From assembly GCA_016181175.1 (NCBI GenBank), contig JACOZV010000001.1, forward strand, positions 75,778-139,777: DNA of 64,000 nt. Direction: 5' to 3'. The notes under the pieces were generated by a model that saw nothing but the letters and a program-made list of their open reading frames with translations, searched no databases and was not told the DNA's origin. Made by a program: the position numbers and the translations under genes. Below are positions 34,613-42,282 of this stretch, one piece after another (position 1 is the first letter of the stretch; each line of letters begins with the position of its first letter). Origin of the DNA: Candidatus Yanofskybacteria bacterium (GTDB lineage Bacteria > Patescibacteriota > Minisyncoccia > 2-02-FULL-40-12 > IGHO2-01-FULL-4-A).

Positions 34613-35151
34613 GGCCATAATCAAATATATGAATAAATTCCACAATAATTTCATAACAAAAAGCGGCTGAAGCCAAGTTCTTAATTTGCGTTTACAAGCA
34701 GCCGCGTAAATCGCGGATTTTTTATCAAAATTGAATATATTAGAGCCATTATTGGCTGTCGTCGGGCATCTCCTTACGGAGGTGCCCGACGGAAGCTAAC
34801 ACTAAACCGATTGAATAGATTGCAATTTAAAAAATAAATAGTTAGCGGGTATCCCGGTTAGAGCTTGCGATTGCCACAAGTGGCAATCCACCTCTAACGG
34901 GATTAAAAAATTGCATTTCTGCATTTAGAAATGAGTTCCAAAATGCAGAATAAGTAGATTGAATTCGATCTATCAATAGAGATCGAGGATTTAATCTTGT
35001 AAGGAATTATTAAGGGCGTATGGAGGATGCCTTGACACCAAAAGGCGACGAAGGACGTGGCGTGACGACGATATGCTTCGGGGAGCCGTCTAGCGGGCTT
35101 TGATCCGGAACATCTCAGTAGCCAGAGGAAAATAAAACAAACCCCGCACCT

Positions 35152-35273
35152 TTTGAGCACAAGATTTTATTTGGCATCCGCATTGTGATGCGTGGCTGAC
35201 GGATATTAATTATTTGTTGTTTGCGCACTACATTTCGGAATCTAATTGACACTAGTGCTTAAAAGGTGCGGGG
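35152..35273 (+). repeat. Hairpin insertion in the 23S 5' domain, flanked by 13-bp inverted repeat CCCCGCACCTTTT / AAAAGGTGCGGGG (family B)
   Basis: Inserted between GAGGAAAATAAAACAAA and AACATTTCCTAAGTAGCGGCGAGCGAA; same IR termini as 57160..57227 and 42283..42458. Confidence 0.65.
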
Positions 35274-35799
35274 AACATTTCCTAAGTAGCGGCGAGCGAA
35301 AGGGAAACAGTCTAAACTCTTGTTTATTAAGTTTACTTAGTGAGTGGGAGTGTTGTAGGAAGGATTTTTTTCTAAACACTGGACATCTGCATATACTCTT
35401 GTGCGGATATCCAGGAAATTAGGATTGAGTTACAAAGTTAGATGTTAGCTGAACGGTCCTGGAAAGGCCGACCAAAGAGGGTGATAGTCCCGTAAACCAA
35501 AACCTCTAATCTCAATCAACCGAGCACATAACTTTTAGGAGTTATGAGCTCGGTTGGAAAATCCTCTCCTGAGTACCCATGGAGCAGACTATCCGTGGCG
35601 AAGCCGGGCCTACTACGGTCCAAGACTAAATACTTTTGGTGATCGATAGTGAACCAGTACCGTGAGGGAAAGGTGAAAAGAACCCCGGTTAGGGGAGTGA
35701 AATAGAACTGAAACCATATGCCTACAAAGAGCCGAAGCCCTTCCCGTCGCAAGACGGTCAGGGTGACGGTGTGCCTATTGAAGAATGATCCAACGAGTT

Positions 35800-36128
35800 T
35801 TTACAAGTGGTTTATCCAGCTTCACTTTTGGTTTATGATGACTTTATGTGGATAGTTTATATTATTCAGAACAATCTAACTGAAAAAATATATATTGGCT
35901 GTACAAATGATCTCAAGAAACGAGTCGAAAAGCATAACAGCCAAACAAATAAAGGTTATACAAGACGACTTATCGGTCAATGGATTTTGATATACGCGGA
36001 AGCTTATAGAAGCAAAGAAGATGCTTTTCGACGGGAGTCAAAACTCAAAGACCACGGTAGTTCTAAACATGAATTGAAGAAGAGAATCAGCAATTCATTG
36101 TTAAAACCAAAAGTGAGGCTGGATTAAG
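35800..36128 (+). mobile_element. Stem-bounded intervening sequence in the 23S helix-25 region carrying a GIY-YIG ORF
   Basis: 19-bp stem CCAGCTTCACTTTTGGTTT (35816-35834) / AAACCAAAAGTGAGGCTGG (36104-36122) enclosing the ORF; inserted between …GAATGATCCAACGAG and GGATAAGCCCGTATAGGG…GGAAACCGAGTG. Confidence 0.65.
35846..36127 (+). CDS. GIY-YIG nuclease-family protein (YhbQ/UPF0213-like) encoded inside the 23S IVS
   Basis: WIVYIIQNNLTEKIYIGCTNDLKKRVEKHN…YTRR…WILIYAEAYRSKEDAFRRESKLK is a GIY-YIG motif set; an alternative GTG start lies at 35807. Confidence 0.7.
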   Translation: MWIVYIIQNNLTEKIYIGCTNDLKKRVEKHNSQTNKGYTRRLIGQWILIYAEAYRSKEDAFRRESKLKDHGSSKHELKKRISNSLLKPKVRLD

Positions 36129-37305
36129 GATAAGCCCGTATAGGGTGCATCCGTAGGGAAACCGAGTGTTAAAAGCGCGACTTAATCGCTTGTAAAAGAC
36201 CCGAAGCCAGGTGAGCTACCCATGGCCAGGATGAAGTTTGTCGAAAGACAAATGGAGGTCCGAACTAGTTGATAGCGCAATATCATTGGATGAGCTGTGG
36301 GTCGGAGTGAAAAGCTTATCGAACCTGGTAATAGCTGGTTCTCCCCGAAATGCCTTTAGGGGCAGCGCCGGTGAGTAGTCGCGGGGGTAGAGCTCTGAAT
36401 GGTTTGCCGTGCCAGCAATGGTAGGCTTACCAAACAAACTACGAATACCGCGGTGTAATCGCCGGTAGTGAGACTGTGAGGGCAAAGCTTCATAGTCGCG
36501 ACGGGATTAGCCGTTTGACCACCGCTTAAGGTCCCTAAATCTATGCTAAGTGTTAAAGGAAGTCATTTTCCTTAGACAGGTAGGATGTTGGCTTAGAAGC
36601 AGCCATCATTTAAAAAGTGCGTAACAGCTTACTGCTCGAATTCTAATTTCGGTTAGACGAGGAAAGTGGCGCCGAAGATTCAACGGGGCTAAGCATAGTA
36701 CCGAATGCGTGGACCGTCCCGATTTATCGGGATGAGTGGTAGGGGAGCACTTCAAGCCGCTGCGAAGGTGTGTCGTGAGGCATGCTGGAGCGCTTGGAGG
36801 AGAGAATGTTGGAATGAGTAACCACAAGCGAGGTGAGAACCCTCGCCGCCGTAAGCCTAAGGTTTCCTCCGCAATGTCAATCACCGGAGGGTTAGGCGAC
36901 GCTAAGGATAACCGTGCCTACGGGCATGGGAAGCCGATGCTAAGCCGGTTAATATTCCGGCCCTTCCATATGTATTGATGGAGCGACGGAGGATATAAGC
37001 TGGAGCAGATTATTGGATTTCTGTTTTTGGATTCCAGGATTGTCGTTTGGAAAATCCGGCGACTGACTTTAATGTCAAAATACGAATTTGAAGAAATCAC
37101 GGGTAACCGTGGGATTCCAGTGAAGAGCCTTCCAAGAAAAACTTCTAAAATTATGCATATGGGAAACGTACTTAAAACCGACACAGGTGGGCTAGTGTAA
37201 GTGCACTAAGGCGAACGGGTGATTATTGGCTAAGGAACTCGGCAAAAAAGTGGCCGTACCTTCGGTATAAGGCCTACCTGACCGTGCCTCACTGCGTTCG
37301 GCACG

Positions 37306-39995: not shown

Positions 39996-40250
39996 CCTAA
40001 AGAGTAACGGAGGCGTTCATTAAGGTCGGCTAGCTGCGGATGGAAATCGCAGCGATAGTGTAAAGGCAAAAGCCGGCTTAACTGCGAGACGGATGTGTCG
40101 AGCAGGTGCGAAAGCAGGACTTAGTGAACCGACCGTTGGTCGTAGGACCGCGGAAGATCATCAGACAAAAGCTACTCCGGGGATAACAGGCTGGTACTGC
40201 CCGAGCGTCCCTAGCGACGGCAGTGTTCGGCACCTCGATGTCGGCTCGGC

Positions 40251-40769
40251 TTTTAATCGACTTTTTAACTGTTTGAGCCCGAGGAAAAGACATCAAAATA
40301 TAAATCACGGCGCAATAATATAGGAATATATTATTGACTGCTAACTTATATCGGTAAAACCCATTCGGTAAACTCGGGGTAATACCGAGAGAAGTTATTT
40401 GTTCAAATTTTTGGAAAAATAAAAAAGACCCTATTGGGTCATGTAAAATATGGCAAATGGTAAGGTAATGGCTAAAACAAATTGAAAGCGACAGAGACCA
40501 TCAGTATAGATTTTTTTGAAAGATCCAAGGGCTATAAGAGAGTTAAAAATCCAGAAAATAAGCATTAAAACCAGAGATATTAGCAGTTGTTGGGAGTTCA
40601 TTATTGCCTCCTAAATTAAATATAATTGATTATTAAATTATTGTCAATACCCAATTAATTTGACTCCAAAAATTTGAACAAATAACACTCGTAGAGACTA
40701 AATGTTAGCCATCCAATCTGCCAATCAGTGGAGGATGAAGTTATGGTCCAATGCACATAGTAATATGTG
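40251..40769 (+). other. ORF-less insertion in 23S after CACCTCGATGTCGGCTCGGC (E. coli ~2510 region); boundaries unresolved
   Basis: About 500 nt without an ORF; internal long-range pairing TTGTTCAAATTTTTGGAAAAAT / GACTCCAAAAATTTGAACAA resembles the module in the 37633..38949 intron; exon resumes near GAAACATGCGTGAGACAGGTTGGTCC. Confidence 0.4.
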
Positions 40770-40840
40770 GAAACATGCGTGAGACAGGTTGGTCCTTATC
40801 TGGTGCGGGCGTTGAAGTTTGAGGGGGGTTGTCCCTAGTA

Positions 40841-41614
40841 AGAAATTGCTACTTCACGCAGTAATGCGTGATGACAACTCGGCTAATAACGGTGAAATCT
40901 TATTATTTTTGTGTTCGTTGATAACTACAATTGTCGCGGTCCGACAATTATAGTACAATTTACTTGAGGACCAGAAATAATTAAGACGATACCGTGGGAA
41001 GTCAATCTAAAATTGATTTAGCATATATTGCAGGTTTTCTTGATGGTGACGGAAGCTTGATGTTACAAATCAAGAGACGCAAAGATGGAACCAAAAAGTT
41101 TCGCTTTATGTCTACAATTTGTTTTTATCAGGATAGTAACCACGAAGAATTTCTGCATTGGATAAAAAATATTCTTGGAATTGGTTATTTGACTCAAAGA
41201 GATGATGGCATGAGTGAACTAAGAATTAATGGATTTAAACAAGTTAAAGATATAATAAAAAACTTATTGCCATTTATTAAATTCAAGAAAAATCAAGCCA
41301 ATGCTATTTATGAAGCAACTAGCATGATGAGCAGTAAGATTCTAAGCCGTTTAACCAAGCAGGAATTGTTAAAAATCGTAGATTTAATGCTTATAATTCA
41401 AAAGCATAATTATAAATCTAGAAGCAAGAAAACCAAAAAAGAACTCATTCAATTATTAGATTTGACCCCGTAACGACTTGTCGAGTTTAGCTCGACGGAT
41501 GATTAGCGATGAGATTGCATCAATGGTTAATCATAACATGCCGATTCCCTGAATCCGCTTTTTGCGGGAGGGAAAAGATATAGTCTACACTTATAGTGAT
41601 ATAAGATTTTGTGA
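40841..41614 (+). mobile_element. Intron in the 23S sarcin-ricin loop (CCCTAGTA | CGAGAGGACCGG) carrying a LAGLIDADG homing-endonuclease gene
   Basis: Flanking exons reconstitute CCTAGTACGAGAGGACCGG exactly; 774-nt insert. Confidence 0.7.
40994..41473 (+). CDS. LAGLIDADG homing endonuclease, intron-encoded
   Basis: 159 aa; LAYIAGFLDGDGSL LAGLIDADG motif. Confidence 0.8.
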   Translation: MGSQSKIDLAYIAGFLDGDGSLMLQIKRRKDGTKKFRFMSTICFYQDSNHEEFLHWIKNILGIGYLTQRDDGMSELRINGFKQVKDIIKNLLPFIKFKKNQANAIYEATSMMSSKILSRLTKQELLKIVDLMLIIQKHNYKSRSKKTKKELIQLLDLTP

Positions 41615-42282
41615 CGAGAGGACCGGGATGAACGAACCTCTGGTCTACCAATTGTTTTGCCAAAAGCAGCGTTGGGTAGCTATGTTCGGTTCCGATAAGC
41701 GCTGAAAGAGATTTGAGGCGAGGCGAAGCAAAAACAACGAGGCATGGCTTGTGCCATGTCAAGGAGTTTTTGTGAAGCCGCAGCTCAAATATATAAATTG
41801 CAGCAGAAATGATTATTAAGTCGGAGGCACAAAGATTCGTGAGAGATTATCACGTTGATAGGGCGCAGGTGTAAGCGCGGTAACGCGTTCAGCCGAGCGC
41901 TACTAATAAATCATCAATTCCTTACAAGATTAAGTCCTTATGACCTTCGCGCTTAAACTGCGGAGCCCCCAAAATCTAAGGGGCTGGCCGCAGTTAAGCC
42001 GCAAGGATTTGCCCAATTTCTTCGTTAAGCACTCCGGTGCTCCCTCGCCATACCTCTAGTATGGCTCGGTTCACTCCTCGTGCTTGCCTCGAACTTGGCC
42101 AAACGCGAAGGTCAAAAATGCAAAAACACCCCTTTAACTATAAAAACTAAAAACCATTTGCTTGGTGGTTATACCGGAAGTGTCCCACCCGATCCTCCCG
42201 CCCATGTACACATAGGCGGGATTGCGATTTGCAGTTGTGCTCGTTACACTGTGCGCAAGCAAATCGGTAACATTCAGACTTG

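Follow-up and report, generated by a model that had tools for sequence, protein, structure and literature searches.

A single 23S rRNA gene interrupted by group I introns and stem-closed inserts in a Yanofskybacteria genome, with two probably artefactual deletions in its catalytic centre

In a 64,000-nt stretch of DNA (the window, to which all positions refer) from the MAG of an uncultured Candidatus Yanofskybacteria bacterium (CPR/Patescibacteria), 23S rRNA sequence is spread over almost 7 kb, which raises the question of whether this is one gene loaded with removable inserts or the debris of several. The Rfam model LSU_rRNA_bacteria (RF02541) matched positions 35000-37750 with 1108.9 bits, with further pieces at 38940-40280, 41632-41689 and 41831-41914; all were colinear on the + strand, so that the match is far beyond chance. 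Blocks of E. coli rrlB followed in order from position 23 to 2887 (blastn). These matches define a single bacterial 23S rRNA gene, colinear throughout and mosaic with inserts (Table 1). A preliminary description had read the locus as one mosaic LSU gene, with precise intron- and IVS-type inserts, in a CPR bacterium, about 3.0 kb of exon and 3.9 kb of insert over about 6.9 kb, and had suggested a covariance-model check. The RF02541 pieces bear this out, the totals (3,057 nt as rRNA, 3,880 nt as inserts) agree, and all eight extra elements were found where it had placed them. Seven of these make up the 3,880 nt: four group I introns at E. coli sites 1931, 2262, 2593 and 2656 (introns A, C, D and E, with LAGLIDADG genes in those at 1931 and 2656) and three stem-closed or hairpin inserts. 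The eighth, a hairpin in helix 63 (H63), falls within the rRNA share.

Table 1 Features of the 23S rRNA gene and its surroundings, in window positions
Feature	Position	Strand	Basis
Candidate sigma-70-type promoter, TTGACG-17-TACAAT, TG-extended -10	34584..34612	+	consensus scan, 10/12
23S end-to-end processing stem, 5' arm	34986..35008	+	pairs with 41916-41938
23S rRNA gene, 6,937 nt	35000..41936	+	Rfam RF02541 and ordered E. coli blocks
ORF-less palindromic hairpin insert, domain I	35142..35273	+	between E. coli ~227 and 233
Helix 25 intervening sequence with GIY-YIG ORF	35808..36151	+	Pfam and inverted repeat
AT-rich hairpin expansion, helix 63 (E. coli 1704-1770 region), counted as rRNA	37290..37445	+	
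Intron A, group I-type, E. coli 1931/1932, 1,317 nt	37633..38949	+	Rfam gpI core and homologs
Antisense cassette in intron A	38376..38882	-	promoter, ORF, terminator
Deletion 1 junction, ~65 nt missing	39049..39050	+	covariance-model alignment gap
Helix 79 intervening sequence, 292 nt	39160..39451	+	covariance-model alignment, insertion in H79 loop
Intron C, group I, E. coli 2262/2263, 496 nt, without ORF	39500..39995	+	Rfam RF00028
Structured element, ~190 nt, nested in 3' part of intron C	39801..39995	+	
Deletion 2 junction, ~88 nt missing	40252..40253	+	comparison with relatives
Intron D remnant, group I-type, E. coli 2593/2594, 525 nt left	40253..40777	+	Rfam gpI and homologs
Antisense cassette in intron D	40427..40647	-	promoter, ORF, terminator
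Intron E, group I-type, sarcin-ricin loop, E. coli 2656/2657, 774 nt	40840..41613	+	
23S processing stem, 3' arm	41916..41938	+	inverted repeat and fold
5S rRNA gene, canonical	42316..42433	+	Rfam RF00001, 82 bits

The two ends of the gene pair in a processing stem (23-nt inverted repeat, 96% complementary, arms 6,907 nt apart, fold -31.4 kcal/mol) and the exons are conserved to the same degree as in relatives, so the locus was not pieced together from degraded genes. Private substitutions were few, four over 2,357 conserved columns (rank 16/51), which indicates that selection on the 23S has not been relaxed. Each insert boundary, once joined, gave back the consensus of insert-free relatives. 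A collage of several degraded rRNA gene fragments, for which no point in favour was found, is refuted by blocks that lie in order and without overlap on one strand, as well as by the paired gene ends and the restored boundaries, and we give it practically no weight.

Group I core motifs (...GACU.(A/U)ACG... and GAUAUAGUC-like) were read in all four introns, and homologous inserts occupy the same sites in relatives. The Rfam group I check that had been proposed for the inserts succeeded in part: intron C scored above the gathering score (67.6 bits against 50), whereas the 3' core of intron A (26.2 bits, E 0.0017), intron D (39.6 bits, E 6e-8 to 1.7e-7) and, weakly, intron E (21.4 bits, E 0.017-0.046) were matched below it. 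In introns C and E a U ends the 5' exon and a G ends the intron (junctions are marked by a slash below); intron D also ends in G, and intron A is also preceded by U. The core motifs of intron A are homologous to the canonical 1931 introns of the related loci L144 (79.9 bits), L113 and L100, and its LAGLIDADG ORF (37832-38338; Pfam LAGLIDADG_1, 87.5 bits) has homologs at 1931/1932 in relatives; its P8-like arms (38347-38366 and 38884-38903) surround a 517-nt cargo loop. The junction AAGGT/AGCGAAATTCC is real, but lies at 1931/1932 and not at ~1917 as first described. Site 2262 is uninterrupted in L006, L061 and L125, and the joined exons equal the consensus GGGGCTGTTGCCT/CCTAAAGAGTAACGG. Intron D, with the 3' end AAACATG/CGTGAGACAG, has homologous introns at site 2593 in L044 (with LAGLIDADG), L131, L213 and L202, and its arms (40394-40415 and 40665-40686; 22 nt, 100% complementary) surround cargo as well. 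The sarcin-ricin junction CCTAGT(A)/(A)CGAGAGG was rightly recognized and lies at 2656/2657; the ORF of intron E (40994-41473; LAGLIDADG_1, 40.3 bits) has homologs at 2657 in seven relatives (63-86% identity), and L125, L006 and others are uninterrupted there. The four introns would fold into ribozymes and splice themselves from the precursor. Two of them, at 1931 and 2656, encode single-domain LAGLIDADG endonucleases that would cleave alleles lacking the intron at the matching site, which would spread and maintain the introns. The terminal nucleotide of intron A is A, where group I splicing needs G, so canonical exon ligation at 1931 is doubtful.

The structured element nested in intron C has a closing stem at 39819-39847 and 39949-39977 and no match in Rfam. 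The sister genome L125 has two more copies, the first antisense within its own 23S insert, the second in the intergenic stretch after rpoC; the copies share a conserved core but not the outer stem.

The helix-tip inserts sit on closing stems of 16-24 bp and are missing or different in L125. At H25, a 24-bp stem (35811-35834 and 36104-36127, 92% complementary) closes an insert without a match to the Rfam group I models, whose ORF (35807-36127, probable ATG at 35846) encodes a GIY-YIG protein (Pfam PF01541, 64.6 bits, E 1.1e-17); L125 has only 28 nt at this site. The H79 insert, with its stem at 39152-39167 and 39444-39459 (94% complementary, -38.1 kcal/mol), bears a 75-aa ORF (39176-39403) with an AGGAGG Shine-Dalgarno sequence, the 64-aa form of which is annotated by NCBI as HYT61_00605. 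The 75-aa protein is an orphan without a family match in our searches and is predicted by AF2 to form a helical hairpin. The domain I insert folds into a single long hairpin (-64.5 kcal/mol) with the termini CCCCGCACC...GGTGCGGGG and is missing in L125, which has 16 nt there; its termini recur at 42283/42458 and 57160/57227, the 9-mer being found 7 times against 0.27 expected. The H63 region measures 190 nt here versus 65 nt in E. coli; its expansion, also a single long hairpin (-70.8 kcal/mol), is common to 5-6 relatives at ~84% identity, and a GIY-YIG ORF often occupies the site in relatives. The three stem-closed inserts may be cut out by a double-strand-specific RNase and the ends not religated, which would leave the 23S fragmented yet functional, as with classical 23S intervening sequences.

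The exons are incomplete, and two small deletions had been overlooked: from the universal core, ~65 nt (E. coli ~2032-2098) and ~76 nt (2518-2593) are missing. The first removes the 3' half of H72, the 5' strands of H73-H75 and A2058-C2063; the second removes H91, the H92 A loop and G2583-U2585, and also some 12 nt from the start of intron D, hence its 5' splice site. Both losses fall in the peptidyl-transferase centre, so that no active 23S can be made from the sequence as it stands. The first segment is intact in 84/84 informative metagenome relatives, among which L125 reads GATGCTGAC...GACGGAAAGACCCC...GGGTTA, with flanks that match the window at 100% and 91% identity. The second junction occurs in 0/31 relatives; L131, L213 and L202 read ...GGCTT ATCCTGG...GGCTGTTCGCC...GAGCTGGGTTCAAACCGT/TAAGAAGTT...TTAAT... 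there. We think that the deletions probably arose as a local error of the metagenome assembly or its consensus rather than in a dead gene, and favour, with moderate confidence, an intron-packed 23S gene with artefactual deletions as the best explanation overall. In favour of an assembly error are their absence from all relatives (0/84 and 0/31), the 100% identity of flanking sequence to L125, the small number of private substitutions, and a unique 44-nt tandem duplication (1/82) in the sister MAG of the same project, 30-75 nt from deletion 1. Look-ups of ORFs spanning both deletion junctions found none.

If the sequence is correct, the locus would be a young 23S pseudogene freshly inactivated by two independent small deletions, a reading to which we assign a minor share of the probability, as we do to its corollary that the cell uses another 23S copy or that a defective population allele was assembled. 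Both deletions are clean and without Ns, no repeat above 1-4 nt at the junctions accounts for a de Bruijn collapse, the loss of intron sequence means that deletion 2 is not merely a dropped conserved block, and an independent assembly reproduced neighbouring sequence exactly (Logan contig L218, 100% identical to 37595-38931, ending 118 nt before deletion 1). The missing terminal G of intron A points the same way, but is common to at least six related introns and so is not a private lesion of this gene; these form an intron subfamily without terminal G. Against a pseudogene, private substitutions are not in excess, the processing stem, both LAGLIDADG ORFs and the other core motifs are all intact, and two deletions without point decay are an unlikely pattern for neutral decay. 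As a rule, a CPR genome has a single 23S gene, its rRNA genes being mostly single copy (Tsurumaki et al. 2024, J Bacteriol, PMC11270868). The contig also crosses the locus without a break, which would be unlikely with a near-identical second copy. A further reading, that the missing segments are encoded elsewhere and joined in trans, like the split rRNA of some organelles, would fit a gene that otherwise looks selected and profile searches that found neither segment in the 64-kb window (nhmmer for the first; control E 1.6e-16 for the second). We hold it to be very improbable: the segments are contiguous or broken only by introns in 84/84 and 31/31 relatives, nothing in the window resembles them, deletion 1 cuts the H72 loop and leaves unpaired half-helices, and deletion 2 takes intron sequence too. 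In the sequence as written, intron A without a terminal G and intron D without a 5' splice site leave precise excision plausible for the 2262 and 2656 introns only; the earlier argument from precise excision against a pseudogene overlooked the two deletions and was overstated.

Two inserts had been called ORF-less, a label that fails for one of them, which bears an antisense ORF cassette. Such cassettes lie in introns A and D. That in intron A consists of a candidate promoter (TTGACA-17-TATACT, 38882-38854, consensus 11/12), an ORF of 73 aa (38630-38409; 91 aa counted from TTG at 38684) and a terminator (38395-38376). Its gene was called independently on a Logan contig (P0121), and its product is an orphan against 1.84 billion representatives. 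In intron D, a candidate promoter (TTGACA-17-TATATT, 40647-40619) is followed by GGAGG, a hydrophobic 56-aa ORF (40601-40431) with no family match and no tblastn match in ~220 related loci, and a terminator (40440-40427). Promoter matches of at least 11/12 numbered two in the region against 0.22 expected.

Mosaic 23S genes were documented for CPR earlier (2015, as cited in PMC11270868), and inserts were found in 82% of CPR 23S genes (mean 1,327 bp, SD 1,112, maximum 5,750 bp, up to 16 per gene; PMC11270868). The gene is not 'still extreme', as had been claimed: its 3.9 kb, well over the mean, belongs to the upper tail of the published range and stays under the maximum. It shares with the surveyed genes the host group, many inserts in one 23S, a bias of group I introns to the 3' half, short inserts at classical IVS sites, and ORF-bearing and ORF-less intron versions in relatives. 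The survey lists LAGLIDADG_1 at 1917, 1931, 1952, 2593, 2604 and 2657, of which 1931, 2593 and 2657 are common to both, and GIY-YIG is confined to non-intron inserts there as here (PMC11270868). Antisense cassettes, the nested structured element and introns without terminal G are not mentioned in it (term search of PMC11270868).

With other LAGLIDADG introns the gene has in common sites 1931 and 2593, the endonuclease family and single-domain enzymes of ~160 aa like I-CreI. Such group I introns are known in 23S genes of Thermotoga (1931), Coxiella, Simkania and the Chlamydomonas chloroplast (I-CreI at 2593). Here, in contrast, four introns occur together, one has traded its endonuclease gene for an antisense ORF, and one lacks the terminal G. 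The intervening sequences of H25 and H45 in Salmonella, Leptospira, Campylobacter and others are removed by RNase III without religation (as cited in PMC11270868). Shared with these are the helix-tip site (H25), a long stem that closes the insert and a scattered distribution across close relatives, whereas the inserts here carry a GIY-YIG or orphan gene, not the 23S_rRNA_IVP protein, and H79 and domain I are not classical IVS sites.

An Rfam search found no SSU rRNA within the 64 kb, and the 23S is unlinked from 16S, as had been stated. The gene had also been credited with its own TTGACG-17-TACAAT promoter; the sequence is present, 388 nt upstream of the 23S 5' end, but is a consensus match only, and a terminator-like hairpin (34702-34716) intervenes. 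The 23S would be transcribed together with the downstream 5S, without 16S. This 5S gene, bordered by the stem CCCCGCACCAAAATTAAAA / TTTTAATTTTGGTGCGGGG (42283-42301 / 42440-42458; 19-nt perfect inverted repeat), is nested within a second, 5S-like gene. Expansion segments in bacterial 5S rRNAs, described with mention of neither CPR nor nesting (Stepanov and Fox 2021, RNA, PMC7812874), are similar in that stem-like modules are placed in loop C of 5S rRNA, whereas here the inserted module holds a complete second 5S gene.

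The locus is a single mosaic 23S rRNA gene and not a collage of fragments. The Rfam model RF02541 (gathering score 50) matched window positions 35000-37750 with 1108.9 bits, and separate scanning of the 3' part gave later pieces of 187.6, 43.7 and 71 bits that follow colinearly at 38940-40280, 41632-41689 and 41831-41914. Positions 23 to 2887 of E. coli rrlB were recovered by blastn as ordered, same-strand blocks in the gene, and the gene termini pair in a 23-nt stem with 96% complementarity. The preliminary description had read the locus as one gene with eight extra elements and about 3.0 kb of rRNA, unlinked from 16S, and had proposed a covariance-model check; the colinear pieces, ordered blocks and paired ends bear out that reading. 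All eight elements were found: seven inserts sum to 3,880 nt and leave 3,057 nt of rRNA, in which the eighth, an AT-rich hairpin in helix 63 (H63), is counted. SSU rRNA was absent from the 64 kb, and the sole Rfam rRNA match besides the 23S was a 5S gene (82 bits), 380 nt downstream of it. The mosaic gene is real and its earlier description correct, apart from the claim that it is not a pseudogene, which two deletions in the gene now qualify.

RodA, encoded nearby, is 100% identical to a protein listed at NCBI under Candidatus Yanofskybacteria. The 348 CPR 23S genes surveyed by Tsurumaki et al. 2024 provide the frame for comparison: 82% have inserts, up to 16 per gene, with a total insert length of 1,327 bp on average (SD 1,112, maximum 5,750 bp); group I introns make up 45% of the inserts and lie preferentially in the 3' half; LAGLIDADG_1 genes are concentrated at 1917, 1931, 1952, 2593, 2604 and 2657; GIY-YIG genes occur in non-intron inserts only; and short inserts occupy classical RNase III intervening-sequence sites (PMC11270868). 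By these figures, the window gene matches the described CPR pattern and falls in its upper tail. Because the trait is already documented, the mosaic gene alone carries little weight; it offers one well-dissected example, with exact boundaries for seven inserts.

Coordinates of the features in and around the mosaic 23S gene (window positions; sites in E. coli numbering)
Feature	Position	Site	Details
23S terminal stem	34986-35008 / 41916-41938	23S ends	
Domain I palindrome	35142-35273	23S domain I	132 nt, 22-bp stem
Helix 25 insert	35808-36151	helix 25	24-bp stem; bare 106-aa GIY-YIG domain
Intron A	37633-38949	1931/1932	LAGLIDADG_1 gene, 87.5 bits
Antisense unit in intron A	38376-38882 (-)		TTGACA-17-TATA.T; 73-aa ORF
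Deletion 1	39049/39050	~2032-2098	65 nt missing
Helix 79 insert	39160-39451	helix 79	16-bp stem; 75-aa orphan ORF behind AGGAGG site
Intron C	39500-39995	2262/2263	
Structured element	39801-39995	3' part of intron C	~190 nt
Deletion 2	40252/40253		~88 nt missing
Intron D	40253-40777	2593	3' end AAACATG, followed by CGTGAGACAG
Antisense unit in intron D	40427-40647 (-)		TTGACA-17-TATA.T; 56-aa ORF
Intron E	40840-41613	2656/2657, sarcin-ricin loop	LAGLIDADG_1 gene, 40.3 bits
Outer 5S-like gene, 5' part	42159-42195		
Outer 5S-like gene, extra hairpins	42196-42266		
Outer 5S-like gene, 3' part	42457-42536		
Outer 5S-like gene, processing stem	42144-42169 / 42524-42549		
Second palindrome	42283-42458	around 5S gene	
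Canonical 5S gene	42316-42433	loop C of outer 5S-like gene	
Third palindrome	57160-57227	intergenic, just before likely EF-Tu gene	

Four of the inserts, A, C, D and E, are group I-type introns. Against Rfam RF00028 (gathering score 50), intron C passes with 67.6 bits, while D, A and E score 39.6 bits (E ~1e-7), 26.2 bits (E 0.0017) and, weakly, 21.4 bits (E 0.02-0.05). Large ORFs and cargo loops lower the scores of these introns; a compact relative of intron A, from L144 (L-numbers denote related loci or genomes), reaches 79.9 bits. The 5' exon ends in U before introns A (...AAGGT), C (...TTGCCT) and E (...CCTAGT); the 5' junction of intron D was lost to a deletion, and relatives have ...AACCGT there. 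The omega G is present in C (39995), D (40777) and E (41613) and absent in A, which ends in ...ACTTA before AGCG. Relatives support the assignments one by one. The core of intron A is homologous to the canonical 1931 introns of L144, L113 and L100, and an independent Logan assembly equals window positions 37595-38931 with zero mismatches. Removal of intron C joins GGGGCTGTTGCCT to CCTAAAGAGTAACGG, identical to intron-less relatives, and intron D corresponds to the introns found at 2593 in three metagenome relatives and in a Saccharibacteria genome, whose copy contains a LAGLIDADG gene. Both LAGLIDADG ORFs, ORF 1 in intron A and ORF 2 in intron E, exceed the Pfam PF00961 cut-off of 23.1, and their translations contain the motifs GFVDGEG and GFLDGDG with the acidic catalytic residue. 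In relatives, most ORF 1 homologs are found at 1931/1932; ORF 2 homologs (63-86% identity) occupy 2656/2657 in seven of them. An apparent "guide" pairing of ACCTTTGG in intron A with the 5' exon is unconserved in relatives and was hence dismissed as chance.

The remaining three inserts have the features of RNase III-type intervening sequences: they sit in the tips of variable helices, long stems close them, and their occurrence in relatives is sporadic. The helix 25 (H25) insert is not an intron (no group I match), and its GIY-YIG domain scores 64.6 bits against Pfam PF01541 (cut-off 22.6). The encoded protein fails TIGR01453 (27.4 vs 56.05 bits), with residues 17-57 alone aligned, and in relatives the GIY-YIG gene is located in H63, not H25. 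The covariance model puts the helix 79 insert in the helix loop. Both the H25 and the domain I inserts are missing from the sister genome L125.

Two segments of the catalytic centre are missing from the gene. When E. coli 16-mers were tiled over the window, positions ~2030-2100 and 2512-2592 found no counterpart, and the first gap is directly visible in the covariance-model alignment. Profiles of the missing segments had no match in the 64 kb, where a control segment was recovered with an E value of 1.6e-16; neither the gene nor any other part of the window contains E. coli ~2032-2098 or 2518-2593. L125 (GCA_016185545.1), a syntenic genome whose RodA is 81% identical, contains both segments: window and L125 agree at 100% up to 39049 and at 91% from 39050, with 65 nt missing between, and the situation around 40252 is similar. 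This comparison used BLAST chains, global alignment of the window and L125 by MAFFT having been defeated by large indels; the genome-contig pattern for references matched mostly Actinomycetota, and few CPR references came from that set. A lineage-specific 22-mer retrieved 89 metagenome loci, 84 of them informative, and in every one of the 84 the sequence goes on with GATGCTGAC...GACGGAAAGACCCC. By comparison with L131, L213 and L202, deletion 2 removed exon 2518-2593 and about the first 12 nt of intron D, and its junction occurs in none of 31 relatives. An intact deletion 1 site is expected to read ...CAGTAAA, then GATGCTGAC..., then the window-specific CGAGTTTTTATGCGTAGTGTAG; an intact deletion 2 site, ...GGCTCGGCTT, then ATCCTGG...CAAACCGT TAAGAAGTT, then TTAATCGAC. 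As written, the peptidyl-transferase centre is incomplete, without A2058-C2063, the H92 A loop and G2583-U2585, and judged by its sequence the 23S gene in this form could not encode an active large-subunit RNA.

Two candidate explanations were tried and rejected. The 240 nt beyond the point where the Rfam match to intron C stops (GGGCAGAAATGACCC...) are not the missing A2058 exon, since the L113 intron has this hairpin in its 3' tail and relatives place the true junction at 39995. Collapse of two paralogous introns did not cause deletion 2, since the sequence from 40253 onward is the same 2593 intron as in L131, L213 and L202. Other explanations of the gaps, a split rRNA or a collage of fragments, are even taken together very improbable.

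The deletions probably reflect a local assembly or consensus error. Outside them, 4 substitutions among 2,357 conserved columns are private to the gene (16th among the 51 sequences), so no relaxed selection is seen. The terminal stem and the two endonuclease genes are undamaged, as are all the other core motifs. If the 23S gene had been inactivated very recently and the deletions were real, the junctions without repeats and the lack of Ns in the sequence at the deletions would be readily understood; however, conserved columns hold no excess of substitutions, and CPR genomes mostly carry one 23S gene, their rRNA genes being mostly single copy (PMC11270868), and we regard such an inactivation as rather unlikely. 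The sister genome L125, from the same project, carries a 44-nt tandem duplication 30-75 nt from the deletion 1 site that is unique (1 of 82 sequences) and looks like an assembly join error. This duplication, on the reverse complement at 3780-3868, lies in the H71/H72 exon, with CATGAATAGCGG...CAGCCAATAGC present twice. No independent assembly spanning either deletion junction was found, and exact-product lookups were empty for the 75-aa, 56-aa and 159-aa ORFs, three junction-spanning ORFs and P0122. In public CPR MAGs, rRNA genes can contain small structural errors or lethal lesions; checking intron junctions alone overlooks such defects, which would corrupt analyses of rRNA structure or of reduced ribosomes.

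A G at the end of a group I intron is needed for exon ligation. The canonical 1931 relatives in L144, L154, L176, L113 and L100 end in G, whereas the 1931 introns of the window, L216, L174, L179, L146, L130 and L217 end in A or T. This no-G subfamily shares a conserved tail of ~13 nt (AGTAACA..., window 38937-38949), an extended exon-binding element GGACTTGGNCGATTRT and an internal guide sequence GCCT split by a hairpin, the latter features as read from the sequence. The processing of their 3' ends would not be explained by the canonical route, a caveat to the predicted splicing of intron A.

Introns A and D also carry antisense cassettes. Of all promoter matches in the region, the best two (11 of 12 positions) are both antisense to the 23S gene, on the minus strand, and each is followed by a small ORF that ends at an intrinsic terminator; two such matches compare with 0.22 expected by chance (P ~0.017). 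One cassette occupies a P8-like loop of intron A, the other the place in intron D where relatives have the endonuclease gene, and both are enclosed by perfect 20-22-nt stems with a common CAAATTTTTGG. The 73-aa product is an orphan whose sole homolog among 1.84 billion representatives is itself, and its AF2 model (pLDDT 73.6) gave generic ferredoxin-like matches only (E >0.1). The 56-aa product is hydrophobic. The orphan ORFs had no Pfam, NCBIfam, PHROG or PADLOC matches. Transcription of the cassettes would run against the abundant pre-rRNA, so they might serve the intron in the manner of type I toxin-antitoxin or addiction modules. At the same place, the intron D homolog of L131 (Ga0187886_1043480, ~1530-1790) has a different antisense ORF (MKVRKIRTSGQHYLVLTAETIKEEKL...) that by eye resembles AbrB/SpoVT and is accompanied by a Shine-Dalgarno sequence and a terminator. 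In the structured element of intron C, the core is conserved and the closing stem varies; L125 has the element at 19939-20133 (+) and 8294-8507 (-), one copy antisense in a 23S insert and one intergenic after rpoC. It had no Rfam match, and the ~1.3 Mb of fetched DNA contained three copies in total.

The three palindromic hairpins have CCCCGCACC...GGTGCGGGG ends, and the palindrome 9-mer occurs 7 times vs 0.27 expected. The canonical 5S gene sits inside a second, expanded 5S-like gene (42144-42549), whose halves were detected by nhmmer with E values of 4e-5 and 9e-21, and the helix IV/V regions of the inner and outer genes differ by compensatory changes. Nested 5S genes recur in L152/L160 (doubly nested), L169, L135/L158/L211, L154/L178 and L217, in at least six distinct metagenome sequences; in L213 the expanded 5S stands in tandem and encloses no inner gene. 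Among the papers that we found on 5S expansions and on CPR rRNA inserts, none describes nested 5S genes. A palindromic element with a complete 5S inside a second 5S suggests a 5S-targeting mobile insertion that brings its own replacement copy. A tentative and rather doubtful idea is that this lineage has, in its rRNA operon, kinds of element for which we found no description, namely the antisense cassettes, the palindromes and the nested 5S genes. Together with the no-G intron subfamily, these could widen the known cargo of rRNA introns and inserts.

In the processing that we propose, the pre-rRNA would start at the TTGACG-17-TACAAT match (34584-34612) and fold, the group I introns would splice out, with the LAGLIDADG proteins, presumably as homodimers, keeping their own introns by homing, and the stem-closed inserts would be removed by a double-strand RNase without religation. 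The preliminary description had given the gene its own promoter; the sequence is indeed present, as a consensus match only, and a terminator-like hairpin follows it. The leader (34527-34990) contains this hairpin with its T-run (34702-34716) and several GC-rich hairpins, which might act in attenuation or in processing. The 23S-5S spacer (41938-42117), which is GC-rich with negative GC skew and bounded by a 17-nt inverted repeat (41938-41954 / 42101-42117), may be another structured insert. Further away, window positions 128-12336 contain six scattered tRNA genes (Leu, Glu, Ala, Arg, Pro, Ala).
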